Shown here: positions 15,883-64,000 of the stretch, one piece after another
Position numbering within the stretch: position 1 is the stretch's first letter
Layout of the letters: the number at the start of each line of letters is the position of its first letter
Source of the DNA: Mycobacteriales bacterium
GTDB taxonomy: Bacteria > Actinomycetota > Actinomycetes > JAFAQI01
Length of the DNA stretch: 64,000 bases
Direction of reading: 5' to 3'
Assembly (NCBI GenBank): GCA_035547035.1
Contig: DASZVL010000013.1
Span: forward strand, 66,503 to 130,502
Notes under the pieces: generated by a model
Databases searched by the model: none
Told to the model about the DNA's origin: nothing
Seen by the model: only the letters and a program-made list of their open reading frames with translations
Program-made: the position numbers and the translations under genes

Positions 15883-16128
15883 ATGTCGGGCCGGCTGACG
15901 ATGTACAGCACCAGCTGGTGCGGGGTTTGCGTGCGCCTGAAGCGTGGGCTGGAACGCGAGGGCGTCGAGTTCGACGAGGTCAACATCGAGGAGGACCCCG
16001 AGGCCGAGAAGTTCGTCCTCGAGACGAACAACGGCATGGCCCTGGTGCCGACGGTCGTGCTGCCGAACGGCGAGGTGCTGAGCAATCCACAGCTCCCCAC
16101 CCTCCTCGAGGCTCTCAGAGCCGCGTGA
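15883..16128 (+). CDS. glutaredoxin-like protein (NrdH/mycoredoxin type)
   Basis: 81 aa with CGVC active site (YSTSWCGVCVRLK), thioredoxin fold; divergent from uvrD2 as in mycobacteria. Confidence 0.8.
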   Translation: MSGRLTMYSTSWCGVCVRLKRGLEREGVEFDEVNIEEDPEAEKFVLETNNGMALVPTVVLPNGEVLSNPQLPTLLEALRAA

Positions 16129-26200: not shown

Positions 26201-26469
26201 AGACACAAGCGGACCCGCTCAGCCAGCTCAGCGGCTGCCTTGTTCGTGAAGGTCACGCCAAGGATCCGGTCCGCCGGCACCGCGTAGTGCGCAACCGCGT
26301 GGACGACGCGCGCCGCCATGACCATCGTCTTGCCCGAGCCCGCGCCTGCGATGACGAGCTGTGGCTCGAGCGGAGCGGTGATGACCGCCATCTGCTCGGC
26401 GGTGAAGTCCTTCCCGAGCAGGTCACGCAGGTAGGACCCGTCGGCCGTCGGCCGGATGCGCGCGCTCAC
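23203..26469 (-). CDS. adnB: AdnB-like helicase-nuclease subunit (UvrD-like motor plus RecB-like nuclease)
   Basis: Walker A IAGAGSGKTMVMAARVVH, UvrD helicase motifs, C-terminal PD-(D/E)XK nuclease GRIDAIY...DVIDFKTGK; start set to GTG 26469 overlapping the adnA stop (GTGA); six-frame ORF extends spuriously to 26709. Confidence 0.85.
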   Translation of the reverse strand: MSARIRPTADGSYLRDLLGKDFTAEQMAVITAPLEPQLVIAGAGSGKTMVMAARVVHAVAHYAVPADRILGVTFTNKAAAELAERVRLCLAALPARSDVEDHEDLPTVATYNSYAAQIVRDHALRIGREPGATLLTEAVQWQLAMRVASRAPGPFPNLDWTTPYVAEMVVALAGDLSDHLCTADAVRRHDAAVRRAVEELAKPLAWAKKMVSMTLARDELLTLVSLYSEEKARLDLIDFGDQVALACAVAEASTEVATIERERYQVVVLDEYQDTGVAQRVLFSTLFGDGHAVTAVGDANQAIYGWRGASASNLSRFSEHFGVRGKQVAAMPLMTSFRCDGRILAVANVVATPLHDSLVRKARSRLVLPGLRAVAGRDDAGEVSIARLPTAHDEADWLAQRIVAVMQAGTPAGQIAVLGRRRTDFPRLHQAMVLRDIPVEVVGLGGLLAMPEVSDIVATLTLLADGTANASAVRLLTGPRWRIGVRDMAAIGRRAGHLARLRVVEQPGTDDGLVIDSAEEAPADEPAVKQGLNEVLAQATSTADPVEAPSLLEAIESPGPPAAYSPEAYERLARFVAEIRRLRRLVGQPLVDLVTEVIAASGLDVEVEAGDAALAAARLANIHAFLDVTAQFNGIDGEADLVAFLAYLKAAADNERGLDLGAVSDADTVKLMTIHAAKGLEWDVVAVPGLVDQVFPTRLSRSSWVTGAAVLPFACRGDSEDLPVLRAYETTADEKAFKEECKSDSDDEERRLAYVAFTRARHRLWLSAYTWIATRKDPCATSVFLTEVAELGEPTVSVDVWCEMPEDATANPIVEAGVIDIAWPALPDPAETARRRAAAGLVEQARGALRPMVEVAGDDAGVAADWRRDTALLIDEAHRRRSRTIAVAVPARLTTSQVVALARDEDAFAAALARPVPSRPQPQARRGSRFHQWVEGLYSVAGAALLDPDDLPGAGDEELSDAELTGLQEKFLASGWAQRIPVKVEAPFEMTVGGRLLRGRIDAIYPTDGGGFDVIDFKTGKQPSGADFEAAALQLSIYRLAWADLAGVAPEVVTAGFLYVRDSHVERPRHLLSHDELAVLLSGSTVTA

Positions 26470-29400
26470 GACATGACCTGCGAGCCTTCGTCGGTTGCCG
26501 GGCACGAGGTCCGGAACCGGCAGTAGCCGCAGCCTTCGTTCGCTCTCGCCGGGAACGTCTCGGTGCGAATCCCGCCGGCGATGCCGTCCACGAGGTCGTC
26601 GACCCACTCGTCGCCTGCCTCGAGCGGGTCCTGTCGCTGCACCTTCACGGCGCCGCGAACCGACTTTCGCAGCTGCACCAGCTCCGCGCCGCCCGGGGTC
26701 GTCGACCAATCCTTGAACGCGCCGTGGCGGGTGACCAGCTGGTAGACGCCGAGCTGCGCGTCGGTCTTCACCCGCTCGTCGCTCGGAGGGTTGCGGCTCG
26801 TCTTGAGGTCGACGACGACGAGCCCGCCGTCGGCGTCGAGCTCGATGCGGTCGGCGCGACCGCGTACGACGACGTCGTCACCAACGGCGACCTCGAAGCC
26901 GACCTCCGCACTCGCGCACTCACGGTCGTTGAGGGCGTGCCAGGCGAGGAACCGCTCCAGCGCCGCGCGCGCCTCGACGTGGTCGCGCACCGCCTGCCAC
27001 TTCGCGTCGTACGGGAGCAGGTGCCAGACCTCGTCGAGGCGCTCGACCAGCACATCGATGTCAGCGGGGAGCTCGCCGACGACCACCGCCTCGGCGAGCG
27101 CATGAACGATCGACCCGAACCCCTGCGCGGTCGACGTCGACTCCGCCGCCTTGGCTTCGCGGTCGAGAAACCAGGCCCGCGGGCATCGGTCGAAAGCCGC
27201 GACGGCCGACGCGGACAGCTCGATCGGGCGGTCCGGGTCACGCACGGGTGCGGCGCCGGGAGTCGGCTCCGGCAGTCCCCACCAATGGTCCGGCGAGGCG
27301 GTCGGGACCAGCGGCGTGCCGTCCTCGTCGACCGCATCGGCAAGGTCGGCAAGACACTCTGCGGCCACCTGGCGGAGGCCCTCGCTGACGTCCGGGTCAC
27401 GCAAGGCCCGTCTCAGCCGCGCGACGAGAGACCCGACCGACAAGATCCCGGCCGTCGGGGTCACGGCGGCAGGGAGCACGACGCCGGTCTCCGTCAGCAA
27501 CCGCGAAGGGCGCTCTGCGAGGTCGTCGGTGCCCGACGTGGCGGTGAGCACGAGCCGCTTGCGCGCGCGGGTGACCGCGACATAGAAGAGGCGGCGCTCG
27601 TCGGTCAGCAGCGCGCCCGCGTCCGGCCCGGCCCCTGGCGAGTCCAACGCCAGGCCGTCGGCATCGAGCAGGCTGCCGCGCCGGCGCAGGTCGGGCCAGA
27701 CCGCCTCTTGCACGCCGGCCACGACGACGAGGTCCCACTCCAGGCCCTTGGACCGGTGAGCGGTCAGCAGGCGCACCGCGCCGAGCGCGCCGGCCTTCTC
27801 TTCGTACGGCGACGCCGGGATCTCTTGCGATGACACCTCGGCGAGGAGCGCACCCACCGTGGCCCTCGGCTGCTTGTCCTCCAATCGGCCCGCGAGCTCG
27901 AACAGAGCGAGGACTGCGTCGAGGTCGCGGTCAGCCGCCCGCCCCTCGGCGTCAGCCGACATCGCAGCGGCGCCGAGCCGGCGCGCCCAGTCCGAGCCGT
28001 CCCACAACGCCCACAGCACCTCTGCCGGGCTGCCGCCGCGTCGCTGCACCCCTGTGGCGGCGTCGAGCAAGCGCGTCAGTCTCACGACGGGCGCCGCGAT
28101 CCAGTCCTCGATCAGCGACGTCGCGGACGGGTCCTCCACCGCCTCGGCGATCAGCCTCGGCGACGGACGAGCGAGTCCGTCGTTCTCGATCCGGTCGAGC
28201 TCGCGCAACCGGCGACCCAGAGCGCGCAGCTGCGACGGCGTCGCGCCGGCCAGCGGGGACGTGAGCAGCATGCGCGCGATGTCCGGCGTCATCGGCTGCG
28301 CCGGGCGGACCTCTCGACCGACTGGTGCGCGCTCGCCGCGGGTCCGCTCATCGACGATCTCCAGTGCGCGCAACAGCGGTGCCACGGCGGGATCACGGGA
28401 CAGCGGAAGCTCGTCGGCGGCGACCGACACCGGGATGCCGGCCGACACCAGCGCCCGGCGAACCGTCGGGATGCTGCGGACACCGGAGCGGACCAGCACC
28501 GCCATCCGCGACCACGCGACGCCGTCGACCAGATGCGCACGGCGCAACAGGTCCGCGATGCCGGTGACCTCGGCCGCCACCGAGGCGTACAGCCGGATCT
28601 CGGGTGCCGCGTCGTCCGTCCCGGCGGCGCGCAGGTTGCGATGTGCTTCGCGCTTCGAGGTCAGCCGGCCGAGGGGGAGCTTCGTCGCGACCGCGCGCGA
28701 CAGCTTGACGAGCTCAGGACCCGAACGCCGGCAAACCTGGAGCTCGGTGACCGCAGCGGGCCGTCCGTCAGCCGTGCGGAACCGGTCCGGGAACTCGATG
28801 ATCCCGGTGACGTCGGCGCCGCGGAAGCCGTAGATGGACTGGTCCGGATCGCCGACCGCGACCAGCAGTCGTCCGTCGCCGGCCAGCATCCGCAGCAGCT
28901 GTTCCTGCGACGGGTCGGTGTCCTGGTACTCGTCGACGTACACCGCCTTGTACTTCTGGCAGACCGAGCTCGCGGATCCGGCGAGCAGGTCGAGGGCACG
29001 GTCGATGACACCCGAGTAGTCGACCTCGTTGCGAAGCGAGAGGACCTCGAGGTACTCCGCGAGAAAGTCGCCCGCGGCGACCCACGCGGGTCGGCCATGC
29101 GCCCGGCCGCGGGCGCGCAACGCAGCCGGGTCCAGGCCGCGCTCGCCGGCCCGGTCGAGCACATCGCAGACCTCTTTCGCGAACCCGCGCAGCCGCAGCG
29201 CCGGAGCCAGCTCGGCCGGCCATCTGGTCTTGCCCTCGCCGGCCGCGTCACCTTCGAGCAGCTCGCGCACCCGCAGTTCCCGCTCGGCCCCGGACAGCAG
29301 CCGCGGCAAGGTGTCACCGGGCGCGACGCCGTAGCTGCGCAGCAGCGAGTAGCAGTAGCTGTGAAAGGTCGCTGCGGACGGCTCGACGACCGTGCGGCCG

Positions 29401-29693
29401 AGCCGCCCGGCGATCCGGCTCCGCAGCTCGTCGGCGGCCTTCCGGCTGAACGTGAGGACGAGCACCTCGTCCGGCGCTGCGCCGCGTCGTACCCGCTCCA
29501 CTACGGACTCGACGAGCGTCGTCGTCTTGCCGGTGCCGGGTCCAGCCAGGACGAGCAGCGGACCCTGGTCGTGATCGACGACGCGCTGCTGAGTGGGGTC
29601 GAGCTCGGGAGCCGCGATCGGATCGACCGGTGGACGGACCAGTCGGTACGTCACGGCGGGCGGGCTCACGACGGCATCACAGCACGCCGGTAC
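26466..29693 (-). CDS. adnA: AdnA-like helicase-nuclease subunit (UvrD-like motor plus RecB-like nuclease with Cys cluster)
   Basis: Walker A LAGPGTGKTTTLVESVV, RecB-like nuclease GRADRIE...VVDLKTSR, C-terminal CGYCRFRTSC Cys cluster; start uncertain (GTG 29693 or 29654), ORF extends to 29870. Confidence 0.8.
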   Translation of the reverse strand, partial: VPACCDAVVSPPAVTYRLVRPPVDPIAAPELDPTQQRVVDHDQGPLLVLAGPGTGKTTTLVESVVERVRRGAAPDEVLVLTFSRKAADELRSRIAGRLGRTVVEPSAATFHSYCYSLLRSYGVAPGDTLPRLLSGAERELRVRELLEGDAAGEGKTRWPAELAPALRLRGFAKEVCDVLDRAGERGLDPAALRARGRAHGRPAWVAAGDFLAEYLEVLSLRNEVDYSGVIDRALDLLAGSASSVCQKYKAVYVDEYQDTDPSQEQLLRMLAGDGRLLVAVGDPDQSIYGFRGADVTGIIEFPDRFRTADGRPAAVTELQVCRRSGPELVKLSRAVATKLPLGRLTSKREAHRNLRAAGTDDAAPEIRLYASVAAEVTGIADLLRRAHLVDGVAWSRMAVLVRSGVRSIPTVRRALVSAGIPVSVAADELPLSRDPAVAPLLRALEIVDERTRGERAPVGREVRPAQPMTPDIARMLLTSPLAGATPSQLRALGRRLRELDRIENDGLARPSPRLIAEAVEDPSATSLIEDWIAAPVVRLTRLLDAATGVQRRGGSPAEVLWALWDGSDWARRLGAAAMSADAEGRAADRDLDAVLALFELAGRLEDKQPRATVGALLAEVSSQEIPASPYEEKAGALGAVRLLTAHRSKGLEWDLVVVAGVQEAVWPDLRRRGSLLDADGLALDSPGAGPDAGALLTDERRLFYVAVTRARKRLVLTATSGTDDLAERPSRLLTETGVVLPAAVTPTAGILSVGSLVARLRRALRDPDVSEGLRQVAAECLADLADAVDEDGTPLVPTASPDHWWGLPEPTPGAAPVRDPDRPIELSASAVAAFDRCPRAWFLDREAKAAESTSTAQGFGSIVHALAEAVVVGELPADIDVLVERLDEVWHLLPYDAKWQAVRDHVEARAALERFLAWHALNDRECASAEVGFEVAVGDDVVVRGRADRIELDADGGLVVVDLKTSRNPPSDERVKTDAQLGVYQLVTRHGAFKDWSTTPGGAELVQLRKSVRGAVKVQRQDPLEAGDEWVDDLVDGIAGGIRTETFPARANEGCGYCRFRTSCPATDEGSQVMS

Positions 29694-29703
29694 GACGGCA
29701 CAG

Positions 29704-30867
29704 TCATCTGTGTACGGCGAAGACGCTGACCTCGCGCAGCGAGGTGAAGAAGCCGCCGGTGTCGGTCTCGACGCGGACCGCGTCCACGCGCGTACCCGGC
29801 AGTGACGCGACCAGTACGTCGTCGGCGCTGCCGAACGGCTCCGTCGCGACGCGGGTGAACCGCCCGCCACCAGGACTGATCGACACTGTGCAGCTCAGAC
29901 ATCCGCGTACCACGAGCAAGGCGGCCGGTACCGGACGACGCAGGGTCACAGTGACATCGCGGTGGTCGTGCTGGGCAGACCCTGCGCACGGCCCGGCTGC
30001 GCATCGCGGGTCGTCAACCGGTTGCCAGTCCGAGTCGAGGACTCCGTCCGTCAGCCCGCACTTCGGCTGCCGGATCTGCTGACCGCGGCTGTCGGTGACG
30101 CTGCACCCAGCGCCTCGACTCGCGGGCACGTCCGTCCCTCGCAGCTCGAGACTGCTGCTGAACAACGCGTCCCGTCCGTGCAGCCGGCCGGACTGCGCCG
30201 TCGTCAGCAACAGGTGTTCGTCCTCGACGACGCGGGCGTCGTACCCGTTGGTGACAGTGAGGGCGTGGCCGTCAGCGACCGGTGGTGTGCCGGTCTCGGT
30301 CTCGAGTGAGGCTTCGAAACGCGACGGGCGATAACGGAGTGGAAGCGGCGGTGGCACGACGAAGCGACGGTTTCCGAGTGCCCGAACATGAGGCGCGCCC
30401 GCGGCCAACCGGATCCGCGCTTGCGTGGACCCGCGCCGCCAGGGCAGGACGACACTCGTCGCCACACGCGCCGGTCCACGAGCCGCGGCGGCGGTGATGT
30501 TGTAGTCGTCGTGCTCCGCGTTGCGTCCCGGCAGCGACAGCGCGAACGACCCATCTCGAGCCGTGAAGCCGCTGTCATGCGGAGCCGAGCAGCCGAGGAG
30601 GCAGTAGAAGCCGACTGTCGAGAAGGCTCCGATCGCGCGAACTGCCTGCTCTCCGCTCGACAGCGCGACTGAGACCACCACAGTCGCACCGGCGACCGGA
30701 TGGCCAGCCGTGTCGGTCACGAACCCGGTCACGGCACGGCCCTGCACCGGTTGCGCGTGCGGCGGCACCGACGGCGGTGTGGTTGCCGGAATCTGGCCCG
30801 CGGTTCGCGGCTGGGCGCATCCCGCCGCGAGCAGAAGCGCGGCAATCGAGGCGAGTCGCCACCGCAT
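29704..30867 (-). CDS. putative lipoprotein, function unknown
   Basis: Signal peptide with lipobox MRWRLASIAALLLAAGC; 387 aa Ser/Thr/Gly-rich, several Cys pairs. Confidence 0.5.
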   Translation of the reverse strand: MRWRLASIAALLLAAGCAQPRTAGQIPATTPPSVPPHAQPVQGRAVTGFVTDTAGHPVAGATVVVSVALSSGEQAVRAIGAFSTVGFYCLLGCSAPHDSGFTARDGSFALSLPGRNAEHDDYNITAAAARGPARVATSVVLPWRRGSTQARIRLAAGAPHVRALGNRRFVVPPPLPLRYRPSRFEASLETETGTPPVADGHALTVTNGYDARVVEDEHLLLTTAQSGRLHGRDALFSSSLELRGTDVPASRGAGCSVTDSRGQQIRQPKCGLTDGVLDSDWQPVDDPRCAAGPCAGSAQHDHRDVTVTLRRPVPAALLVVRGCLSCTVSISPGGGRFTRVATEPFGSADDVLVASLPGTRVDAVRVETDTGGFFTSLREVSVFAVHR

Positions 30868-52420: not shown

Positions 52421-53935
52421 CTAGGCGGACTCGAGCCAGCGCAGGAAGGTCCGCACGCCGAAGCCTGTGGCGCCTTTCGTCACCTCGTCCTCGTCGCCGT
52501 CGGCTCGGGCCGGTCCAGCGACGTCGAAGTGCGCCCACGGCAGGCGGCCGGCGAACTCGCGGAGGAACAACGCTGCGGAGATCGACCCTCCGCTGTAGTG
52601 CTTGGCGGGATCGCCGATGTTGCGCAGGTCCGCGATCTCGGAGTCGAGGCCGTCGCGGTAGTCCTCGACGAGCGGCATCTGCCAGACCCGCTCACCGGCA
52701 TCAGCAGCAGCGGCGAGGAGCTCGTCGCGCAGGCCGCCCGCCGTCGCGTAGAAGGCGGCGTGCCGCTTGCCCAAGCCCAGGTACGCCGCTCCGGTCAGCG
52801 TCGCAATGTCCACCACGGCGTCGGGATTCAGCTCCGCTGCGGCGTAGGCGAGAGCGTCGGCAAGGACGAGCCGGCCCTCGGCATCGGTGTTGAGCACCTC
52901 ACTGGTCCGGCCGCCGTAGTGACGCAACACGTCGCCCGGCCGCATCGACGCCGCACCCGGCATGTTCTCGGCCATGGGCACCAGCGCGGTGACCCTCACC
53001 CCGATCTCGAGCGCGGCGAGTGCTGTCATGGTCGCGATCACCGCGGCGCCGCCTGCCATGTCGGTCTTCATGCTCGGCATGCCGTCGGGCGGCTTGATCG
53101 ACAGGCCGCCGCTGTCGAAGGTGATGCCCTTGCCGATCAGGACGACATGGCGGGTCGCGCCCTCCGGCGACCAGCTCGCTTCGAGCAGCCGCGGCGGCCG
53201 GGCCGAGCCCTGGCCCACGCCGACGATGCCGCCGAACCCCTCGGCTTGCAGCTCTGCCTCGTCGCGGACCCGGACCGTCACGCCGGCTGCCCGGCAGAGC
53301 TCTCCGGCGCGCATCGCGAGCCAGTCAGGAGACTTCTCCAGCGACGGCGTGTTGGCCAGGTCACGCGCGAGGTGTACGGCGTCGACGACAGCCGGTGCCT
53401 GGCGAAGCGCGGTGCGCACCGCGCGAGGATCTTCGACAAGGAGCTTCACGCGACGCAGCACGGGCGCCTCGGCCGCCTTGGCGACCGAGAACCGGTACGC
53501 CGCCAGCCCGATGCCCTCAGCCACGGCGCGCACGCCGGCGGCATCACGGCCGTCGGCGAGCGTCGTCGCGAGGGAGCGCGAAGCCTTCGCCCGCCGTACG
53601 ACGGCGGCAGCCGCCTTGCGCAACGCCCCCGTCGAGCCCTCGCCCGTTCCGGCGAGCAGGACGACGTCGACGCCGTCGCGGTGGACCGGGATGGCGACGA
53701 TCTCCCCGGGCTTGCCTGTCGCCTTCTCGGCCTTGAGGAACGCCGCGGCGTCGAGCTTGAGCGCTTTCAGCGCATCCGCGCCGCTTCCCAGCTCGGGGAG
53801 CCCGCGCTGCCGCGGGCTCGTGGGGATGGCGAGGACCGCGCCCGCGCCGAGGAGCGGGCCGCGGGCAGCGGTGATCGAAGGCGCGCCTGCCACCGGAGAG
53901 CGGCTAGCCGACTGCGGTCTTGAGGGCGTCTCCAA
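52421..53935 (-). CDS. pepA: leucyl aminopeptidase (M17 family)
   Basis: NTDAEGRL motif and M17 metal-ligand pattern, 504 aa; true start may lie downstream of 53935. Confidence 0.9.
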   Translation of the reverse strand: METPSRPQSASRSPVAGAPSITAARGPLLGAGAVLAIPTSPRQRGLPELGSGADALKALKLDAAAFLKAEKATGKPGEIVAIPVHRDGVDVVLLAGTGEGSTGALRKAAAAVVRRAKASRSLATTLADGRDAAGVRAVAEGIGLAAYRFSVAKAAEAPVLRRVKLLVEDPRAVRTALRQAPAVVDAVHLARDLANTPSLEKSPDWLAMRAGELCRAAGVTVRVRDEAELQAEGFGGIVGVGQGSARPPRLLEASWSPEGATRHVVLIGKGITFDSGGLSIKPPDGMPSMKTDMAGGAAVIATMTALAALEIGVRVTALVPMAENMPGAASMRPGDVLRHYGGRTSEVLNTDAEGRLVLADALAYAAAELNPDAVVDIATLTGAAYLGLGKRHAAFYATAGGLRDELLAAAADAGERVWQMPLVEDYRDGLDSEIADLRNIGDPAKHYSGGSISAALFLREFAGRLPWAHFDVAGPARADGDEDEVTKGATGFGVRTFLRWLESA

Positions 53936-54071
53936 GTGCGGTTGCCTCGTCGGGAGTCATCGCGACGACCAGACGGCCACCACCCTCGAGGGGCACGCGC
54001 ATGAGGATGTCACGTCCCTCCTTGGTCACCTCGAGCGGACCATCGCCCGTCCGCGGCTTCATGGCAGCCAT
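53904..54071 (-). CDS. DUF3117-family small protein
   Basis: MAAMKPRTGDGPLEVTKEGRDILMRVPLEGGGRLVVAMTPDEATALGDAL, conserved actinobacterial small protein; 3' end overlaps the annotated pepA start. Confidence 0.6.
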   Translation of the reverse strand: MAAMKPRTGDGPLEVTKEGRDILMRVPLEGGGRLVVAMTPDEATALGDALKTAVG

Positions 54072-54279: not shown

Positions 54280-57200
54280 CTACTTGACGTGCACCTTCAC
54301 CACGTTGCTGTAGCCGCTACGAACCCCGGCACGGCCCTTGACCTTGGCCTGGAACCTCAGGTGCAGGCCCTTCGCGGCCTTCAGCGTGCCCTTGACCTTG
54401 CCCTTCGGGCCGGTGACGCCGGTCCCGATCTTGTGGCGGGCTCCGCTCTTGCTGAGCTGGTAGAAGACCACCTTCGCGGCAACGAGCTTCGGGTGGCTCG
54501 TGACGGTCAGCGTGAGCTTCTCCCGGTGGTGGGCCGCCCGCTTCTGGCTGACCGTAAGCGCCGGCTTCTCCTTCGTGCTGCTGCCGCCGCAGTTCGACGT
54601 GCAGCCGCTGCCGCCTGAGCCGAACGTCACTACCGCCGTCGCCGGGTTGTGGCTGCCGACGCCGCTCGGGGCGTTGGTGCTCGCGTCGAGCACCGTCACC
54701 GTGTCACTGCCGCTGCTTCCGGTGTCGAGGTAGTTGAACGACGCGGTTCCGGCCGAGCCGGTCGTCGCCGTGCCCGACTGACTGTTGCGGCCGCTGACGG
54801 CCCACTGGAGCGTCTGGCCGGACACGCCCACACCGAACTGGTCGACCACCCGACCGGTGAGGCTGACCTCGCCGCCTGGCGCGACCTTCTGGGACGCCGG
54901 AGTCACGCCGACCGCCGCGGGGTGAGGCGCCTGGAACGTCGCCACTGCCGTATCCGGTCCCAGGCCGCCCTTCGTCGGGTCGCCCACGCTCGCCTGGACG
55001 GTGACCTTGTTGCCGGCAGCCGGGCTGGGCACGCTCACGACGAACAGCGCGTTGCCCTTGGCGTTGGTGTTGACCTGCGTCGCGGTCGTGGTGGACCCGC
55101 TCGGCGAGCCGCTCATCACGAACGTCACGGGAATGTTCGCCAGCGCAGCGTTGCTCGCGTCAGCGACATGCGCAGCGAAGATGATCGACTGCACGCCGCC
55201 ACTGCCTGTCGTGACGGTGCAGGCCGGGACGATCTGATTGGCGTCACTGGTCAGCTCGTCCGGGCAGCCGAACGTCAGAGTGCTGCCGGCCGGCGGAAGT
55301 GCCTGAACCGTGACCGTGGTGGTGGTCTGCGGGTCATTCGTGGCCGGAGCAGTCTCGTTGGCCGCCAGCGGGGAGAAGAACGTCACGTGGTCCACACCGA
55401 CGTTCTGGTTGTTGATCAATGAGCACTTCGCCTGACCGAACTGGTCGGCGGCCTGGCAGGCGACCGCCTTCGACGTGGCGTCCGGGCCCCCCGACGCGAC
55501 GACGTAGGAGACTGCCGCACCCGGCAGCGGTGTGCCGTTTGCGTCCTGCACGAGGACCGTGAACGTCGCCGTGCCGCCTTGCGCGATCGTCGGGTTTGCC
55601 GGCGTCACCGTCACCGTGTGCGCGGGACCCGGGGTCACGACGGTGAGCGTCTGGTTCGAGCTCACCTTGTTGTTGGCGCTGGTCGCCAGCGTCGTCTGGG
55701 CGAAGACGTTGACGGTTCCGGCGGTCTTTCCGCTGATCCCGACGATGATCTGGCCGGGATGCGCCGGGTCCTGAGCCGAGGTGCTGTTGATCGTGAGGGT
55801 GTCGGTCCAGGTCGGGTTGGTCAGCGGCGGCAGGCCCCCGCTCGACTTGACGCTGTTCGTCGAAGACTCGGTGGAGCCGCCGGGAACAGCGCACGTCGAC
55901 AGCGATGCCGCCGGCGCGCTGGCTGCCGTGCCGAGGCCCTGCGTGGCGACGATCGCCACCGGGTACTGCACGCCGGGTGCAACGGTGACCGTGTACGCCT
56001 GGCAACCGCCAGTGGCGATCTGCGCCTGACCTTGACCGGGCGAGAGGTCCGGGGCGAGCGTCACAGACGACGGGTTCGCAAAGGTGATGGTCACGGTCGC
56101 CTTCTGCGATGCAGGAAGCGTCGTCGGGTCCGTGACAGTCCCGCTCGGGTCGTTGTAGATCAGGACTGTGTCGGTTCCGGCGGTCCCGCTGTTGGCGACG
56201 TCGCAGACCCAGCTCGTGGTGCCGCCGCTGCTCGTGCAGGCGTGCGAGACATTGGCGCCGTCGAGATCCGATCCGGTGCTGGCCGTGACCTTGTAGCGCA
56301 CGTTGGGCGTCTGGGCGCTGCCGCTCGTGACGGTCACGTTGATCCGGCCGATGCCGCTGCCGGAGTTGGCGGAGTCCTTGGTCGGGAACGTCGTCGCCGT
56401 CGGCGTAGCGGTCACCGAGTCGCCGAACGTCACGTTCAACGTCGTCATCGGCTCGGGAAGCGGGTTCGTCGGGTTGTTGCCGTCGTAGACGCCGTTGTTG
56501 TTGGCGTCGTCGAAGATCGTGAGGTGGTCGGTGCCGCCCGTCCCGTTGTTCTTCAAGGTGCACGTGAACGTCGAGCCGGTCTGCGGGCAGATCACGGAGG
56601 TCGTCGTGTGGTCCGGGTCGCCGGCCGGCGTGATGACGTAGTCGATGTTCGCGGTCTGACCGGACGGGACACCCGCGGCCGTGACCGTGATGGTTGCGGT
56701 GCTGCCGGCCGAGTGGTTCGGGCCACCCGCGTCCTGTGCCGTCAGGACCTCGAAGTTGGCGGTCGCGGTCGCCGACGGCTCGGTGCTGCTGGGCGCCTTG
56801 TTCTGGTCGAGGTCGTCGTAGACCTCGACCGTCGCCGAGTCAGCGCGGCCGTTGTTGACGACGCTGCACGTCCAGGACGTCATCGGGTCGGGGTTCTTGC
56901 CCGCGTCGTTGTCGGTGCAGGTGCCGGGGCTGCTGAACTGGCCGCCGACGATCACCTCACGCAGGTGCGGCTGCCAGGTCGCGAGCCTCCCTGTGAGCTC
57001 GACGTCGAAGGCCGCCGAGCCTGCCGGCGAGGTGTTGCTGCGCGGGAGAAGCGGCGTGGAGGTCATCCCCTCGAAGCTGATCGTGATGGTCGTCTTGGCC
57101 TCGTCGGTGTCCGCCTGGTTTGGCGTCCCGTTCGCCGAGTCGTCGTCGAAGAGCTGGACGGTGTCCGTGCCGGCGGTGCCGCCGTTGGTAAGCGGGCAGG

Positions 57201-57786
57201 CCCAGTTGGCGGGCTGGGTCTGCGACTGGGTGCACTGGATCAGCGTGCCGTTGTCCGGTCCGGCAGTGACCAGGCCCTTGAGGGCCGGGGTGGTCGAGGC
57301 GCCCGTGAAGGTCACGTTGATGGTGGCCTTCTCGCCCGCGCCGTAGAGGTACGTCGGCGTTCCGGCAGGCGTGACGTTCTGGTCCGCCGTCGCCACCATC
57401 GTCTCGAAGCTGATCGCGGTAGGTGCCGAGGACACGTTCTGGGTGGGGTCGGTGACCACGACCTGGTCGGTGCCCGCGCCGCCGGTGTTGGTGAGCGAGC
57501 AGGTCGCGCCGCTCGCGCTGATGGTCGTGCAGCTGGCGCTCGGCGCGGCGTGGTCCGGGCCGCTCACCACGCTCAGGACGAGCGCGTCACCAGCCACCGG
57601 GTTCGTCACCGAGACGGTGATGACCGCGGTCTGGCCCACCGGGTACCGCGCCTGCTGACCGACTGCGGAGATGCTCTCCGAGCCGGCCGCCGAGGCGGCG
57701 GTGGCAAGGGGGACTGTCGACCCCAACGTGGCAGCCGCGATCGCCGCGACCGAACTCAGCCACCGCACCGCCCGCTTCGTGTGCAT
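54280..57786 (-). CDS. giant secreted repeat protein 1: Cys-pair/DxDxNG modules, Big_1-type Ig-like domain array, basic C-terminal domain
   Basis: Signal peptide MHTKRAVRWLSSVAAIAAATLGSTVPLATAASA; six or more modules C..C.[LV].N.G.AGTD.[VL].[IVL][FY]DD..NG; Big_1 signatures (VQDANGTPLPGAAVSY, VVDQFGVGVSGQTLQW); antisense frame is Arg-rich junk. Confidence 0.75.
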   Translation of the reverse strand: MHTKRAVRWLSSVAAIAAATLGSTVPLATAASAAGSESISAVGQQARYPVGQTAVITVSVTNPVAGDALVLSVVSGPDHAAPSASCTTISASGATCSLTNTGGAGTDQVVVTDPTQNVSSAPTAISFETMVATADQNVTPAGTPTYLYGAGEKATINVTFTGASTTPALKGLVTAGPDNGTLIQCTQSQTQPANWACPLTNGGTAGTDTVQLFDDDSANGTPNQADTDEAKTTITISFEGMTSTPLLPRSNTSPAGSAAFDVELTGRLATWQPHLREVIVGGQFSSPGTCTDNDAGKNPDPMTSWTCSVVNNGRADSATVEVYDDLDQNKAPSSTEPSATATANFEVLTAQDAGGPNHSAGSTATITVTAAGVPSGQTANIDYVITPAGDPDHTTTSVICPQTGSTFTCTLKNNGTGGTDHLTIFDDANNNGVYDGNNPTNPLPEPMTTLNVTFGDSVTATPTATTFPTKDSANSGSGIGRINVTVTSGSAQTPNVRYKVTASTGSDLDGANVSHACTSSGGTTSWVCDVANSGTAGTDTVLIYNDPSGTVTDPTTLPASQKATVTITFANPSSVTLAPDLSPGQGQAQIATGGCQAYTVTVAPGVQYPVAIVATQGLGTAASAPAASLSTCAVPGGSTESSTNSVKSSGGLPPLTNPTWTDTLTINSTSAQDPAHPGQIIVGISGKTAGTVNVFAQTTLATSANNKVSSNQTLTVVTPGPAHTVTVTPANPTIAQGGTATFTVLVQDANGTPLPGAAVSYVVASGGPDATSKAVACQAADQFGQAKCSLINNQNVGVDHVTFFSPLAANETAPATNDPQTTTTVTVQALPPAGSTLTFGCPDELTSDANQIVPACTVTTGSGGVQSIIFAAHVADASNAALANIPVTFVMSGSPSGSTTTATQVNTNAKGNALFVVSVPSPAAGNKVTVQASVGDPTKGGLGPDTAVATFQAPHPAAVGVTPASQKVAPGGEVSLTGRVVDQFGVGVSGQTLQWAVSGRNSQSGTATTGSAGTASFNYLDTGSSGSDTVTVLDASTNAPSGVGSHNPATAVVTFGSGGSGCTSNCGGSSTKEKPALTVSQKRAAHHREKLTLTVTSHPKLVAAKVVFYQLSKSGARHKIGTGVTGPKGKVKGTLKAAKGLHLRFQAKVKGRAGVRSGYSNVVKVHVK

Positions 57787-57977
57787 CGTGTTGCGCTCCT
57801 CCCGGAAAGCCTTCATCTGATCGGCTCTTCGTCGTAACCCCAGCGCACCGGTGCCCTGAAGCCCAGCAATGCGAATCCACCCAAATGGGCGGATATCCCA
57901 ACCGGGACATCATACGGGCGCGCGTCGCGCCACGCTGGGAAGGTTGGGCGGTTAGTTGTCACTGTCTCCGGCCGCCG

Positions 57978-60900
57978 TCAGGCCTTGACTCGGATCGACT
58001 TCGTCCGCGACTTCCCCGACCGCACGCCGGACTTGCCCGACACCTTCGCGCGGAACTTGAGCTTCTTGCCGACCTTCGCGTGGACGAACAGGTGCGCCCG
58101 TCCGGCCGAGCCCGTCCGGCTCACCCCGATCTTGTGGAAGTGCCCGAGCCGCTCGACGTAGTACGTCACCTTCGCGTGGGCCAGAGCCGGGTGGCTCGAG
58201 ACGTGGATCGTGACGACGCCCGCGTGAGAGGTCAGGCGGATGCCCGGGTGCTCCTTGGCCCCGCCCGCGACCGAGACGTTCAACGTGCCGCTGGGCTCGC
58301 CGCTGCCGGCGCTGCCGTTGTTGTTGACGTCGTCGTAGGCGAACACGTGGTCGGTCCCGCCAACGACCGGGGTGTAGGCGAAGAACGCCACGCCCTTCGG
58401 CGTCGTCGTACCGGACCCGGAGGCGGAGTTCGCTCCGGTGATCCGGAACCGGACGAGCTGACCGACCGCGGGGGTGCCGTCGGAGTTCGTCACGGTTGCC
58501 GCGATCAGCTCCTGGTCGCCGACCTTGCGCGGGCCGGCGGCCTGGACCACGACGCTGGTCGCCACGACCGGGGCGCTCACGGTGTACGTCGCGGTCGCGG
58601 TGCACGCGCCCGCGGTGGCAGCGGGCGGCGTGCCCTGGTTGGCAAGCTGGCCGCACTGGCTTCCCGCGCCCCCGGCGGAGATCGTGGCGACGACCGAGCC
58701 GGGCCCGCTGTCCGTCGCCGCGGTCGTGACCGTCACGCTCGCCGTACCGTCCGCGGCGGTCGTCAGCGTCGCCGACGACGAGCCCGCGATGTTGCCGGGC
58801 CCGCTCTGGGTGAACTGCAGTCCGACGTTCGCCACCGGGTTGCCGAAGGCATCCGTGACGGTGGCGGTGAACTTGCCCGAGGTCCCGCGGGTGATGGTCG
58901 TCGATGCCGGCGCGATCTTGATCGTGCGCGCCTTGTCGGACGTCGGCGTCTGGTAGGTCACCGTGCTCGAGGCGGTCGCCGAGTCGGCACTGGCGGTGAC
59001 GGTGTGGGCGCCCGACTTCGTCGACGTCACGTCCGCGAACGCAAAGCCTGCGGCATCCGCGGCGACGGTGACACTCGTCGTGCTCGTCGGTGTGAGGGCG
59101 CCCTGCTTGGCGACCTGGCCGTTCGACATGGTGAAGGTCACCGGCTTGCCGGCGAGCACCTCGCCGGTCGAGTTCTTCACGAGCGCACACACGGTGGTCG
59201 TGGTCCCGAGCGCGACGTTGGTCGCCGCCGTGTGGCCCGTCGCGGTGCAGGTGGCGTCCGACGTGCCACTCCCGCTCGTGTCGATCGTGATCACCGACGC
59301 GGCGGTCGAGCCGTTGACGTACTGCACGGTCGCGGAGCCGTTGAACGGGTGCGTGGTGTCGATGACGCTGATCGTGTCCGACGTGGACGCGGCGTTCACG
59401 CCGGTGTCGGTGTAGCTGATCGTCGCAGTGCCGGCGGGACCGGTCGTGACGGTTCCGCCCTTGCCGTTGTTGCGCCCCACCACGGAGTAGTTCAGGGCCT
59501 CCGACCCGGACACCCCGGCGCCGAACTGGTCGGTGACCTGTGCGGTCACCGTGACCACGCCGCCCTTCGTGACGGTCTGAAGCTGAGGTGTCACAGCCAG
59601 CGCGGTCGCCACTGGTGTCTGCCAGCTTGCGCTGGAGGTTCCGGCGGATGTCGCACCAACCTTCGCCTGAATGATCGCGCCGTCGCCGGCGGCCGGGTTC
59701 GGATCGTTGATCGTGAAGGTCGCGATGCCGTTCACGTCGGTCGTGGCGCTCCCGGACGGCAGGTTCGCCGCGCTGATCGCCTGACCACCGACCACCGCTG
59801 CGGTCGCGGTGAAGTCGACGATGGCACCGGAGACCGGCGTCCCGTTGTTCTTGAGGATCTCGGCGAACGTCACCGACTTCTGCGTGGTCGGCACGGTGCA
59901 GTTCTGGACGCCGGTGCCCTGGTTCGCACCGGCCAGCTGCTGGACGCAAGTGAGGGCATCGCTGGTGAAGGTGGGTTGCGCGTTGAAGACAGCGGTTGCC
60001 GTGGTCTGCGGCTCGTTCGAGTCCGGGCCCGTCGTGTGGTTGCCCGGCGCGTTGTTGTCCACCCAGAAAGTGATCGCATCGGTTCCGGGGCTGCCACCGT
60101 TCGGCACCGAGCATGTGGTGGTGCCGTCGGCGTGCGTGGTGCCACACGCCGCAGGGGTCAGGCTGTCCGGCCCGCTCGTGGTCTCACGGTTGACTTGGAC
60201 GCCCTCGATCGGGTTGTTGGTCGAGTCGGTGACGCCGACGGTGTAGGACGCGACGGTGCTGGTGTACTGCGTCCGGCTCGCCGGTACCGCGAGCAGCTTC
60301 GCCGCTCCCGCGACGCCGCCGACGCTCCAGTTCATCGGCTGGGAGCCGCTGATGTTGCCCGCGGCGGTAGCCGTCACGCTCCCGGGACCGGCGTTCCCGG
60401 CCGCAACGCCGATCTTGACCGTGCCGTCGCTGCCGGTCTGGACCGTCTTCGTCTGGCTGACCGTAAACGTGCCGTCGCCGTTGTCGGTAGCCCCGGTCCG
60501 CTGGTCGGCACCCGTCGAGCAGTCGGCGTTGAAGAACGTCACCTCAGGAGCGCTCGGCGTGCCGGTGACGGTCTGGTTCATGGTCACCGTGATCGGATCG
60601 CCGGCCGACGCCCGCCCCCCGGCGTCGGTCGCGGTGATCGTGTAGACGATGCAGGTTCCCGTGGTGGCGGAGTTGCTCGGGGCGGTGATGGTCACCCCGG
60701 CCGCCGCGCCCGAGAACGTCACGAGCGTGGAGGGCGACACCACGTCGGCGGGCGCGGGCGTCGCGTCGTCCACGCCGTCGTTGTTGTTGTCGGCCAACGC
60801 CTCGACCGTGTCCTGGCCGGCGCCGTTGGCGTTGCGCAACGAGCAGGTGGCCGTGCCATCAAGCCTGGTCAGGCACGGCGCTCCCGCGGGGAACGCGGTG

Positions 60901-61514
60901 CCGTCGGTGCCGCTGGGATTCGGGCCGCCGAGGTTCGTGAGCCGGATCAGCGGCGCATCCTGCCCGGCGACGACGGGCGAGTAGTGCACGTTGAGGGTCG
61001 CGGTGGAGCCGGCCGGCTGGTTGGTGTTCTGGCTGTTCGCGTCGATGGTGACCGACGTGTCGGTCGTCTCGGCGCCGGTGAGCGCAACCGTGGCGTCCGC
61101 GTGCTGCGCGCCGTTCGTGATGCGCAGCACGTCAGGGCCTGCCCCGGCGTAGACGTTGGTGAAGGTGCAGCTGCCGCTGAAGACGTTGGCCACCGGGGCC
61201 GTCTCCGAACAGCTCAGGGTCGGGTTGGGCCCGGCGCCGTCGGGGCCGCTGGCGAACGCGAACGTCGAGGCACCCGTCTCCGTGCCGTCCGTGGTGACGG
61301 TGTAGTTGACGGTCGCCGTGCCGCCGTGAGCCATCGTCGTGGTGGTGCCGGCGGGGTTGATCGTCACTGCCGTCGTGGCGGCCGCCGCCGTTCCGAGCGA
61401 CAGCGGAGAGGCCAGTACGGCGGTCGTCGCGCCGATCACCGTGGCGGCGGAGGCCCACCGCTTCAGCGCACGACGAAGACTCCCCGTACCGGTCATGTGC
61501 ATCCCTTCCGACAC
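57978..61514 (-). CDS. giant secreted repeat protein 2 (paralog): Cys-pair modules plus Big_1 array plus basic C-terminal domain
   Basis: Signal peptide; Big_1 signatures VTDQFGAGVSGSEALNY, VKNSTGEVLAGKPVTF, VTDAFGNPVANVGLQF, VTNSDGTPAVGQLVRF; C-terminal domain alignable to proteins 1 and 3. Confidence 0.75.
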   Translation of the reverse strand: MSEGMHMTGTGSLRRALKRWASAATVIGATTAVLASPLSLGTAAAATTAVTINPAGTTTTMAHGGTATVNYTVTTDGTETGASTFAFASGPDGAGPNPTLSCSETAPVANVFSGSCTFTNVYAGAGPDVLRITNGAQHADATVALTGAETTDTSVTIDANSQNTNQPAGSTATLNVHYSPVVAGQDAPLIRLTNLGGPNPSGTDGTAFPAGAPCLTRLDGTATCSLRNANGAGQDTVEALADNNNDGVDDATPAPADVVSPSTLVTFSGAAAGVTITAPSNSATTGTCIVYTITATDAGGRASAGDPITVTMNQTVTGTPSAPEVTFFNADCSTGADQRTGATDNGDGTFTVSQTKTVQTGSDGTVKIGVAAGNAGPGSVTATAAGNISGSQPMNWSVGGVAGAAKLLAVPASRTQYTSTVASYTVGVTDSTNNPIEGVQVNRETTSGPDSLTPAACGTTHADGTTTCSVPNGGSPGTDAITFWVDNNAPGNHTTGPDSNEPQTTATAVFNAQPTFTSDALTCVQQLAGANQGTGVQNCTVPTTQKSVTFAEILKNNGTPVSGAIVDFTATAAVVGGQAISAANLPSGSATTDVNGIATFTINDPNPAAGDGAIIQAKVGATSAGTSSASWQTPVATALAVTPQLQTVTKGGVVTVTAQVTDQFGAGVSGSEALNYSVVGRNNGKGGTVTTGPAGTATISYTDTGVNAASTSDTISVIDTTHPFNGSATVQYVNGSTAASVITIDTSGSGTSDATCTATGHTAATNVALGTTTTVCALVKNSTGEVLAGKPVTFTMSNGQVAKQGALTPTSTTSVTVAADAAGFAFADVTSTKSGAHTVTASADSATASSTVTYQTPTSDKARTIKIAPASTTITRGTSGKFTATVTDAFGNPVANVGLQFTQSGPGNIAGSSSATLTTAADGTASVTVTTAATDSGPGSVVATISAGGAGSQCGQLANQGTPPAATAGACTATATYTVSAPVVATSVVVQAAGPRKVGDQELIAATVTNSDGTPAVGQLVRFRITGANSASGSGTTTPKGVAFFAYTPVVGGTDHVFAYDDVNNNGSAGSGEPSGTLNVSVAGGAKEHPGIRLTSHAGVVTIHVSSHPALAHAKVTYYVERLGHFHKIGVSRTGSAGRAHLFVHAKVGKKLKFRAKVSGKSGVRSGKSRTKSIRVKA

Positions 61515-61699
61515 CCCCGCGGGCGCCGTGGCAGGCGTTGACGCACGCGTGCGCTACCTCTATCGACGCCGAGAACCGGTGTTGGTCGCGGCCAGTTGTC
61601 GACTTCGTACCACATCGCAGGCAGGCGATCGGGGAGGCTGAACGCAGTTCGGGATGACCAGTGCCGCAAACCGGGAGTTTTGTCCTGGTCTGCGAAAAC

Positions 61700-61735
61700 G
61701 CTGAAGGCCGGCCCCTGATGGGACCGGCCTTCAGC
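61700..61735 (-). terminator. intrinsic terminator downstream of giant gene 3
   Basis: GCTGAAGGCCGG-(12 nt)-CCGGCCTTCAGC, 12-bp perfect stem; on the minus strand followed by CGTTTTCG. Confidence 0.55.
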
Positions 61736-61751
61736 GTTACTTGCGGGTGAG

Positions 61752-63995
61752 CTACCGCTTGACGTGGATCGACCGCGCCGGCGACGTGCCCGACGTCGTG
61801 ATCGACGTGGCGCTCACCTTCACCCGGAACTTGCGGTGCGAGCCGCGCTTCTCCGCGAAGGAGTGCGAGGCCTTGCCGCTGAGCGAGCCCGTCCGGTTGT
61901 GGTGGATCAGCACCCACGACCCGTGGCGCTTCACGTAGTAGCGCACGTTGGCCTGGAAGGCCTTCGGGTGCGTCGTGACGTGAACCCGCACGTGGCCAGG
62001 CGTCGAGCTGAGCGAGATCGACGGGTGCTCGATGCCGTGCACATGCCCGGTCGCGAACGCCTGCGGCTCGTCAGCCTGACGGATCTGGTCGTCGTTGGTG
62101 TCGACGAACGCCGCGAGGTGAACCGTGCCGTGGTGGGTGACCAGGATCGACACGTGGGTGTTGCCCAGCGGACCGGTCGTCGCGCTTGCAGCGGCCGTGT
62201 CCGCACCCTTCATGTAGAACCGGACGACCTGGTGGGCCGCCGGCGTGCCGTCGGAGTTCGTCGCGTTGGCCTCGATCCGCATGTGCGTACCGGACCTGAC
62301 GCTCTTCTCAGGCGTGATCGTCAGACCGCTCGGCGTCACCGTGGTGCCCACGGTGTACGTCGAGGTCGCGGTGCAGGTGCTCGCCGGCGTCCCGGTCGGG
62401 GCGCTCGAGCACTGCGTGCCCGTCGTGGCGATGGTCGCCGTGACGGAACCCGAGCCCTTGTCCGTCGCCGCCGTACCGAGCGTCACACTCGCGGTGCCGT
62501 CGGATGCGGTGGTGACCGAAGCGGACGACGCGCCGCCGATCGAGCCCGGGCCGCTCTGCGTGAAGCTCACGCTCACGCCGGGGACCGGGTTGCCGAACTT
62601 GTCGGTAACCGTGGCGGTGAACTTCTGCTGACCGGCCGGCGCCACCGTCGCGGTGGCCGGAGCCAACGCGATGGCGTAGGCCTGGCTTGCGGCCGGTCCC
62701 GCGTAGGTCACGGTGCCCGTGCCGCTCACGCCATCAGCAGTCGCCGTGACGGTCTGCGCGCCGGCCTTCGTCGAGGTGACGTCAGCGAACGCGACACCTG
62801 CGGCATCGGTCGTCGCCTGGTAGGTCGTGCCGCTGCTGCTGGTCAGCCCGCCATGAGCCGCCACCTGGCCGTTGCTGACCGTGAAGGTCACGGCCTTGCC
62901 CGCCAGCACCTCACCTGTCGAGTTCTTCACCACGGCGCAGACCTCGGTCGTGTGCTGCAGCGCGACGTTGGTCGCCGCAGTGTTGCCACTCAGGCCACAC
63001 GTCGCGTCGCTGACGCCGAGACCGCTCGTGTCAACCGTGACGGTGCCGGCCGATGTAGAGCCGGTCACGTAGTCGACCGTCGCGGTGCCGTTGAAGTGGT
63101 CAGTGTTGTCCGTCACCTGGATGGTGTCGGTCTTCTGAGTCGGCACGGTGCCTGCGTCAGTGTAGGTGATGGTGCCGTCGGCCGCCGCCGTACCCGTCTT
63201 GGCGTTGTTGCGCCCGGTGACGAAGTACGTGATGTTCGGCGAACCTGCCACCGCGGTCCCGAACTGGTCGGTGACCGTTGCCTTGACCGTCACGGTGCCG
63301 CCCACCTGGACCGTCTGCAGCGCAGGCGTGACCGTGAGGCCGGTGGCCGTCGGCGATGCCCAGTGTGCAGTGGCGGACCCGATGTTGGTCGCACCGACCG
63401 CCGCGGACACCGTGACGTTGTCACCGTTGGCCGGCGTCGGGTCATTGACGACGTACGTCGCGGTCCCGTCAGCACCGGTCGTCTTGGTGGCCGACGCCGG
63501 CAGGTTGGACCCGGTCAGGGTCGTGCCACCGAGCTTCGCCGAGGTCGCCGTGAAAGTGACCGGAGCGCCCGAGATCGGGTTGCCGTTGGCGTCCTTGACC
63601 GTCGCCGTGAACGTCACCGACGTGGTGCTCGTCGGGACGGTGCAGTCGGTCTGCGCGGTGCCCTTGTTGGCACCTGACAGCTGCTGCGTGCAGGTCACCG
63701 AGCTCTTCGCCGCAGACACCGCCGGCGCGGCGTTGAACGTCGCAGTTGCGGTGCCCTTCGGCTCACAAGTGTCGGCACCGCTGGTGTGGCTGCAGCCCGA
63801 GGCCGTGTTGTCCACCCAGAAGACGAGCGAGTCGGTGCCCGCCGTGCCGCCGTTGTGGACCGTGCAGGTGGCCTGACCGGAGGAGTTCGTCGTCCCGCAC
63901 GAGGTCACGGGAACGTTGTCCGGGTTGGTGGTGCCGGTCGTCGCCTCGTTGATGGTGACGCCCTGCACCGGGCTGGTGCCGTTGGTGGCGGTCAC
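61752..63995 (-). CDS. giant secreted repeat protein 3 (paralog, 5' end beyond window)
   Basis: Big_1 signatures VKDANGNPISGAPVTF, VTDQFGTAVAGSPNITY, VKNSTGEVLAGKAVTF, VTDKFGNPVPGVSVSF; long blocks about 80% identical to protein 2; same basic C-terminal domain. Confidence 0.75.
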   Translation of the reverse strand: MTATNGTSPVQGVTINEATTGTTNPDNVPVTSCGTTNSSGQATCTVHNGGTAGTDSLVFWVDNTASGCSHTSGADTCEPKGTATATFNAAPAVSAAKSSVTCTQQLSGANKGTAQTDCTVPTSTTSVTFTATVKDANGNPISGAPVTFTATSAKLGGTTLTGSNLPASATKTTGADGTATYVVNDPTPANGDNVTVSAAVGATNIGSATAHWASPTATGLTVTPALQTVQVGGTVTVKATVTDQFGTAVAGSPNITYFVTGRNNAKTGTAAADGTITYTDAGTVPTQKTDTIQVTDNTDHFNGTATVDYVTGSTSAGTVTVDTSGLGVSDATCGLSGNTAATNVALQHTTEVCAVVKNSTGEVLAGKAVTFTVSNGQVAAHGGLTSSSGTTYQATTDAAGVAFADVTSTKAGAQTVTATADGVSGTGTVTYAGPAASQAYAIALAPATATVAPAGQQKFTATVTDKFGNPVPGVSVSFTQSGPGSIGGASSASVTTASDGTASVTLGTAATDKGSGSVTATIATTGTQCSSAPTGTPASTCTATSTYTVGTTVTPSGLTITPEKSVRSGTHMRIEANATNSDGTPAAHQVVRFYMKGADTAAASATTGPLGNTHVSILVTHHGTVHLAAFVDTNDDQIRQADEPQAFATGHVHGIEHPSISLSSTPGHVRVHVTTHPKAFQANVRYYVKRHGSWVLIHHNRTGSLSGKASHSFAEKRGSHRKFRVKVSATSITTSGTSPARSIHVKR

Positions 63996-64000
63996 GGTGA

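Follow-up and report, generated by a model that had tools for sequence, protein, structure and literature searches.

Three Ig-domain genes on the minus strand

The window analysed here is the whole stretch of 64,000 nucleotides (nt) of contig DASZVL010000013.1, with a GC content of about 69%, from a Mycobacteriales metagenome-assembled genome (MAG) that represents an uncultured soil actinobacterium. Toward its end lie three consecutive genes on the minus strand, P1, P2 and P3, whose products are strings of immunoglobulin (Ig)-like domains closed by a strongly basic domain of about 95 amino acids (aa), hereafter the tail. P1 (54280-57816, minus strand) is an open reading frame (ORF) of 1178 aa with a signal peptide at about aa 1-43, Ig modules, a Gly/Cys-rich linker, and the tail. 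P2 (57978-61514, minus strand) also has 1178 aa when read from the first GTG, and comprises three Cys-pair modules, a Big_1 array, and the tail; the public record (P0002) begins at ATG 61496, which gives 1172 aa. P3 (61752 to beyond 64000, minus strand) has its C-terminal 747 aa within the window. The complete P3 of 1061 aa was read from an overlapping contig (L060, 1546-4731), which the window part matches exactly, and its start, with a signal peptide of its own, lies about 940 nt past the window end.

A sequence-only reading of this window had described three same-strand genes for proteins of about 1180 aa, each with a Sec signal peptide. The three consecutive ORFs were confirmed, all on the minus strand. 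The length holds for P1 and P2 but not for P3, and all three proteins carry a signal peptide, although that of P3 was recovered only from L060. A Tat signal was considered and rejected, as P3 has no twin arginine and, on visual inspection, the n-regions resemble those of Sec signals. The frames are intact over 3.2-3.5 kb, with a GC content at third codon positions (GC3) of 0.90-0.92, which is typical of real genes at this overall GC content, and the numerous opposite-strand ORFs across P1-P3 are the usual high-GC artefacts. All three are annotated publicly as "hypothetical" (P2 as 'hypothetical protein VHC43_02965', encoded on a contig of 164 kb).

The stalks are built from repeat units of the invasin/intimin-type Ig fold. 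In the HMMER scan against Pfam, Big_1 (PF02369) matched P2 (7.7e-15, 55.2 bits) and P3 (4.6e-24, 84.8 bits) above the gathering cutoff of 34.9 bits, whereas P1 fell just under it (8.7e-08, 32.6 bits), so the Big_1 arrays first read by eye were recovered in all three, slightly below cutoff in P1. Beyond side matches to MG4 and Invasin_D3 (weak, P3, 2.6e-06), Pfam gave nothing of substance, and the NCBIfam scan of P1-P3 returned no match. DUF11 was rejected as a weak sub-threshold match (16.6 versus 24.6 bits). These results support the earlier description of multi-Ig, Big_1-type secreted paralogs in a high-GC Gram-positive lineage.

The motif C-x8-16-C-x-[LV]-x-N-x-G-x-x-G-T-D occurs five times in P1, three times in P2, and twice in P3, and the Cys counts are even (18, 14, and 14, respectively). 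Five tandem Cys-pair modules of P1 occupy 56074..57693 on the minus strand (aa 42-581), each about 100-115 aa long with one conserved disulfide, and about four further Ig/Big_1-like domains follow them. The unit has an invariant C...C-x3-N core, then G-T-D, then an acidic DDxNxNG...EP loop, and its Cys pairs are conserved. A hidden Markov model (HMM) of the five modules matched P1 at aa 42-139, 141-250, 250-356, 357-466, 467-581, and 726-839. The same model also matched Cys-containing Big_1-type modules in P2 and P3 and, more weakly (10.6 bits, E 0.0035), the Cys-free module preceding the P2 tail. Since it reaches Big_1-type modules including a Cys-free one, the Cys-pair modules are variants of the same Ig type, stapled by a disulfide. 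The N-terminal Cys-pair modules described earlier thus exist, but not as a class distinct from the Ig array; a separate class was rejected in favor of disulfide-stapled Big_1/MG-type Ig sandwiches. Judging from domain spacing and the HMM matches, each protein would consist essentially of about nine consecutive Ig domains. The acidic DDxNxNG..D..EP loops recur after the G-T-D strand (P1 aa 222-240 and 436-452; P2 aa 241-250 and 1061-1072). They resemble calcium-binding loops of the DxDxDG type and might stiffen the rod.

The paralogs are old. A recent duplication of P2 and P3 had been proposed from near-identical peptide blocks, and the quoted block is indeed present. However, P2 and P3 share 51% aa identity over about 750 aa, their best DNA blocks are just 70-76% identical, and the P2/P3 DNA comparison revealed no conversion-like tracts; recent duplication or gene conversion was rejected on these grounds. 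P1 is 31% identical to P2 over the C-terminal 350 aa and 34% identical to P3 over 280 aa. Each paralog has orthologs of its own in other genomes: the P2-type orthologs (P0003-P0007) are 60-65% identical, the P3-type ortholog in the related MAG L001 is 72% identical, and the P1-type orthologs are 52% identical in L001, beside pepA, and 46% in L005. The duplication is therefore older than the split between these species.

The basic C-terminal tail

The Lys/Arg/His-rich C-terminus noted in the sequence-only reading was borne out by composition. The last 95 or so residues of P1-P3 hold 27-29 K/R/H against 1-2 D/E, whereas the remainder of the mature proteins has an isoelectric point (pI) of 4.3-4.7. 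The P1 tail (54283..54567, minus strand, aa 1084-1178) has a pI of 11.8, a net charge of +21, and 6 His; the P2 tail (57981..58265, minus strand, aa 1084-1178), which was the sequence used for modelling, has a pI of 11.8, a net charge of +18, and 9 His; the P3 tail (61755..62039, minus strand) has a pI of 11.9, a net charge of +14, and 11 His. When P1-P3 were divided into non-overlapping 95-aa windows, only those that included the tail were strongly positive. A Gly-rich linker precedes the tail (in P1, GSGGSGCTSNCGGSS), and a conserved E-[KH]-P motif marks the domain boundary after it. Against its L001 ortholog, the tail is the most conserved segment of P1 (72%, versus 41-65% for other segments), and across the syntenic arrays described below its conservation equals or exceeds that of the stalk. 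The tail is uncharacterised, as had been supposed: no Pfam or NCBIfam model covers it, and the isolated P1-P3 tails had no Pfam match even at E<=10, fn3 included.

An exhaustive HMMER search with a profile of the three tails against 1.84 billion representative proteins resulted in 101 matches at E<=1e-3, of which 35 reached E<=1e-10. Among these, 79 are complete, high-scoring tails; they stop no more than 3 residues short of the C-terminus, usually at the last residue, and the proteins that carry them are between about 75 and 2160 aa long. The other matches, with low scores and several stretches each, are ordinary uncharged Ig-repeat proteins. P1-P3 themselves score 95-106 bits against the family profile. 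The family tails have a mean net charge of +15 (range 7-25), a mean of 7.5 His, and a mean pI of 11.3 (minimum 10.0), whereas their passengers have a mean net charge of -29 and a mean pI of 4.5 (maximum 5.66). The passengers are mostly Big_1 arrays, so the tail does recur and co-occur with Big_1 elsewhere, a point that the sequence-only reading had left to be checked. Other passengers carry fifteen CarboxypepD_reg/SdrD_B repeats, Calx-beta, an NHL propeller with He_PIG, or a glycine-rich domain, and several small family proteins consist of a signal peptide and the tail alone. We propose the family name 'basic C-terminal FN3-like tail' (FN3, fibronectin type III) for domains with a C-terminal profile match, a pI >=10, and an acidic secreted passenger; P1-P3 have all three features, as do the 79 complete tails.

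All named family members are Actinomycetota: Mycobacteriales MAGs, one Frankiaceae MAG, and Actinoplanes couchii. The last is the only cultured carrier (WP_203794632.1, Calx-beta passenger). Immediately upstream of its tail-bearing Calx-beta gene lies a gene (L063, 8933-9640) for a 235-aa protein of collagen-triple-helix repeats, which could be another surface-fibre component. A word-indexed search with the three-tail alignment returned one fragment (P0001), and with a 58-tail alignment it returned nothing. P0001 (153 aa, on a 1058-bp ENA contig) joins a SecF N-terminus to the last 40 aa of a P1-type tail, and P0019 (474 aa) joins a phosphoglycerate kinase N-terminus to a P1-type tail. Both are most likely chimeric metagenome contigs, though two independent in-frame cases are curious.

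The AlphaFold2 model of the tail, built from the 58-sequence alignment, is very confident and has seven strands (predicted local distance difference test, pLDDT, 93.9; predicted template modelling score, pTM, 0.81). On this model, the tail is a generic seven-strand FN3/Ig-like sandwich and not a new fold. The matches that Foldseek returned for the tail model were all generic Ig/FN3 sandwiches, and none reached E<=0.001. Searching the PDB sequences with a profile gave one marginal local match, to the Sulfolobus S-layer stalk protein SlaB (8qox_B, E 3.8e-05, 47 residues); homology to SlaB was rejected, as the match covers only a 47-residue generic sandwich motif. Along the tail alignment, inward positions are strictly hydrophobic, and the conserved structural residues are E4, P6, T/S23-H24-P25, G54, and G65. 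Basic residues spread over nearly all outward strand positions of both sheets, with 34 columns 30-70% basic and 5 columns at least 70% basic. Diffuse basic columns around a hydrophobic core argue for selection on surface charge and not on a defined pocket.

Neighbouring genes and related arrays

The three genes are transcribed in the order P3, P2, P1, toward pepA (M17 leucyl aminopeptidase, about 52421-53935). Scans for sigma-70 promoters and T-run terminators were uninformative at this GC content, and hairpins were found by direct folding. A terminator hairpin follows P3 (61697..61738, minus strand), 14 nt past the stop, with a 19-bp GC-rich stem and then UUUU; it folds at -42.8 kcal/mol (z = -8.2), and 0 of 200 shuffles were equally good. 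A terminator-like hairpin lies directly past the stop of P1 (54215..54272, minus strand; -43.3 kcal/mol, z = -6.3), whereas folding of the P2 3' side gave no comparable hairpin (z = -0.1). On this pattern, P3 would be transcribed by itself, and P2 and P1 may share a second transcription unit.

The cluster is not limited to the three genes originally described, as it also holds a tail-only protein and a conserved lipoprotein-like gene, and relatives add a large paralog. Just beyond the window end, a plus-strand gene (L060, ~185-619) encodes a stand-alone tail protein of 145 aa with a signal peptide, one tail-like domain, and a short C-terminal extension; it matched no Pfam family, and its L001 ortholog (~1074-1499) is 75% conserved. 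Divergent from P3 and upstream of it, between P3 and the tail-only gene, the lipoprotein-like gene (L060, 616-1287, minus strand) has a LAAC lipobox, a Ser/Ala/Pro-rich linker, and a small C-terminal domain, likewise with no Pfam match. At least three genomes keep it within the array (L001 1570-2055, minus strand, 66%; L005 4039-4275, minus strand, partial), which may reflect a functional role in the system or no more than synteny.

Closest to this genome are uncultured Mycobacteriales MAGs from soil, with pepA 67-83% identical, and one Frankiaceae MAG. A scan anchored on pepA recovered syntenic arrays, intact beside that gene and with tail-bearing Ig proteins upstream of it at the same place, in at least four related MAGs (L001, L002, L003, and L005). 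L005 and the P0059 contig have one additional large tail-bearing paralog upstream. The middle paralog of L005 (3970-5980) matches P2 residues ~612-1083 only, with no detectable tail; this copy may have decayed, or the assembly may be faulty there. A scan of species-representative genomes with P2 patterns returned no relative, which reflects the limit of back-translated peptide patterns and not absence.

The window as a whole is a core chromosomal region with AdnAB-like and UvrD-like helicases, a MoeB-like ThiF-rhodanese protein, a DEAD helicase, ParA-like and Mrp-like ATPases, and a GlgC-like gene in addition to pepA. An adjacent pair of ~1150-aa proteins with UvrD-helicase and PD-(D/E)XK nuclease domains (AdnA/AdnB-like) was observed, as was a UvrD-type helicase with an HRDC domain (window 23203-29870 and 13775-15883, both minus strand). 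The AdnA/AdnB-like and UvrD genes are ordinary actinobacterial core content, which places the Ig-protein array in a conserved chromosomal region. Between P1 and pepA lies a 55-aa ORF, MAAMKPRTGDGPLEVTKEGRDILMRVPLEGGGRLVVAMTPDEATALGDALKTAVG (53907-54071, minus strand), which resembles the small conserved actinobacterial family DUF3117 and may belong to it. The Frankiaceae MAG (L002) has a near-identical peptide in the corresponding position. Because this ORF extends into the pepA ORF as called mechanically, with its start at 53935, pepA itself probably starts further downstream.

Candidate roles of the tail

The absence of an LPXTG signal, a hydrophobic anchor, and SLH repeats, already remarked in the sequence-only reading, held in motif, hydropathy, and Pfam checks alike. 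The motifs LPxT[GA], LAxTG, NPxTG, and LPxGA occur nowhere in P1-P3, and Gram_pos_anchor was not detected in them. The last 120 aa of P1-P3 contain no hydrophobic segment (Kyte-Doolittle maximum <=0.94, 19-residue window). Pfam found no SLH, LysM, GW, SLAP, or CWB domain in the full proteins at E<=0.1 or in the tails at E<=10. Por_Secre_tail, the C-terminal domain (CTD) model of the type IX secretion system (T9SS), matched neither P1-P3 nor the isolated tails, and the neighbourhoods examined held no T9SS genes. No sortase or secretion genes were found in the window, and five genomic contexts of tail-bearing genes shared no sortase or secretion genes, with no partner genes in common among distant members. 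The proteins map to no known wall-binding family or defined adhesin class, with ortholog annotations limited to 'hypothetical' or 'Ig-like domain-containing protein'.

A domain that is autonomous, portable, always terminal, opposite in charge to its passenger, and free of neighbouring machinery behaves like a retention or sorting module. Portability and the strict C-terminal position agree with the retention role for which the basic tail had been put forward. Close to half of all fibrillar-adhesin-like proteins lack a recognised anchor, and anchors of new types are to be expected (PMC8286594).

We tentatively favor the reading that the tail is an undescribed electrostatic, non-covalent cell-envelope anchor for fibrillar surface proteins, a plausible candidate that we hold well short of confidence. 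The locus would encode Sec-exported, rod-like surface proteins of about nine acidic Ig domains (pI ~4.4), several of them disulfide-stapled, with a short Gly-rich linker joining the Ig chain to a 92-aa FN3/Ig-like 'foot' (pI ~11.8). After signal-peptide cleavage, the polycationic foot would bind anionic envelope polymers non-covalently and largely electrostatically; candidate ligands are wall teichoic or teichuronic acids, phosphorylated glycans, and lipoglycans. Charge repulsion would then drive the acidic Ig stalk off the wall and into the surroundings. The tail could thereby act as a portable retention module that displays varied passengers, namely Big_1 rods here and CarboxypepD_reg, Calx-beta, and NHL-propeller proteins elsewhere.

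Several points weigh against this reading. The signal peptides were recognised from hydrophobicity and visual inspection only. No non-Ig adhesive tip domain was detected at the N-terminus of P1-P3, where the mature protein begins with an Ig module, which also tells against the label 'adhesin'. The generic Ig/FN3 fold is uninformative on the ligand, and a very basic domain could equally bind extracellular DNA, minerals, acidic polysaccharides, or sister acidic stalks instead. Simple anchoring also leaves the purpose of the stand-alone tail protein unexplained. The earlier description of the locus as an 'adhesin, sheath or S-layer-like system' is a tentative suggestion. We consider it doubtful that the tail is an Actinomycetota-specific envelope anchor class and that the paralogs, the tail-only protein, and the lipoprotein form a dedicated fibrillar coat, sheath-like or S-layer-like.

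We rank wall anchoring above every alternative. The first of these takes the tail as a substrate-binding end: the proteins would be released and, as matrix or biofilm components, would attach cells or matrix to polyanions in the surroundings, for example the surfaces of clay or silica, humic acids, polysaccharides of the pectin type, or extracellular DNA. The same tail and passenger charges fit it, every member derives from a soil metagenome or a soil actinomycete, and no known type of cell-side anchor is present. The His enrichment (mean 7.5 per tail) would make such binding pH-tunable in acidic soils. We nevertheless judge it unlikely, as the C-terminus is normally cell-proximal in Gram-positive fibrillar proteins (PMC8286594) and the strict last-residue position is typical of retention or sorting modules. 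Substrate binding and wall binding are not mutually exclusive.

Alternatively, the tails would drive protein-protein assembly, with feet docking on paralog stalks, the lipoprotein, or the tail-only protein to form a heteromeric sheath, a fibril bundle, or an S-layer-like coat. Several paralogs, the conserved lipoprotein, and the tail-only protein are kept together in every genome, the tail and stalk charges are complementary, and the strong terminators suggest strongly expressed units. The weak local match to the beta-sandwich of SlaB would point the same way, but it is a short generic sandwich motif. Many tail-bearing proteins elsewhere are single, with unrelated neighbours, and 14-18 Cys per protein together with a beads-on-a-string architecture is unlike classical S-layer proteins. 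On balance, assembly seems to us quite improbable.

A third alternative, by analogy with the T9SS CTD, is a C-terminal secretion or sorting signal that a dedicated machine would read and then remove or process. The T9SS CTD (Por_Secre_tail, Bacteroidota) is, like the tail, a beta-sandwich of ~80-100 aa that is strictly C-terminal and borne by many unrelated secreted passengers, and the ~90-aa tail adds a conserved E-[KH]-P motif at its boundary after the Gly-rich linker. However, the tail is negative with the CTD HMM and extremely basic, and such charge is not a T9SS CTD feature; the host is a monoderm, and no conserved machinery or T9SS-like genes lie in the five contexts. The N-terminal Sec signal peptides are already present, and together with passive binding they suffice. 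We know of no T9SS-like sorting system in Actinomycetota, and this explanation is very unlikely.

Finally, the possibility of decaying or silent pseudogenes, or of a low-complexity high-GC artefact, suggested by the Thr-, Ala-, and Gly-rich composition, the many overlapping spurious opposite-strand ORFs, and the seemingly truncated middle paralog of L005, is essentially refuted by the intact frames with their GC3, by full-length orthologs of 52-72% identity at the same position in several genomes, by domains that fold confidently in models, and by conserved Cys pairs.

Compared with known systems, P1-P3 have the repeated stalk domains of the fibrillar adhesin definition (PMC8286594), with about nine Ig-type modules, but no recognisable tip domain. 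They share Big_1-type Ig arrays with the Big_1-stalk proteins invasin, intimin, and FdeC. The invasin/intimin type has LysM and an IAT_beta barrel N-terminally and a C-type-lectin tip, whereas P1-P3 have neither (no IAT_beta, LysM, or Intimin_C in Pfam at E<=0.1). They also differ from that type in their monoderm host, in the many modules with a conserved disulfide and an acidic DDxNxNG loop, and in the basic FN3-like C-terminus.

In the Listeria GW, Lactobacillus SLAP, and Clostridioides difficile CWB2 proteins, a shared positive module holds variable secreted proteins on anionic wall polymers, and the paralogs are often clustered. The tail would follow the same logic, wall binding being our proposal for it. 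There is no sequence relationship, however; the tail is a single FN3/Ig sandwich and not an SH3-like GW module or tandem SLAP/CWB2 repeats, and its carriers belong to a different phylum. Compared with FN3 domains, the tail has only 5-20% identity, in line with the negative fn3 and Foldseek searches, and ordinary FN3 domains are internal spacers without its charge or terminal position.

Multi-Ig secreted proteins and basic non-covalent anchors are known kinds. What is new is an unmodelled C-terminal domain family in Actinomycetota and, in an uncultured lineage, a conserved locus with several paralogs. The tail family is rare, and its fold and logic are familiar, so the finding is useful rather than startling. 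Non-covalent display in Actinomycetota is poorly known compared with Firmicutes, and the signature of the tail is simple: strictly C-terminal, pI ~11, with an acidic passenger. The cultured carrier Actinoplanes couchii (WP_203794632.1) makes the anchor idea testable. If the tail is a true wall anchor, it would give a new rule for annotating surface proteins in soil actinomycetes, offer industrial actinomycetes a small, portable tag for surface display, and allow a first look at the cell exterior in an uncultured Mycobacteriales lineage.

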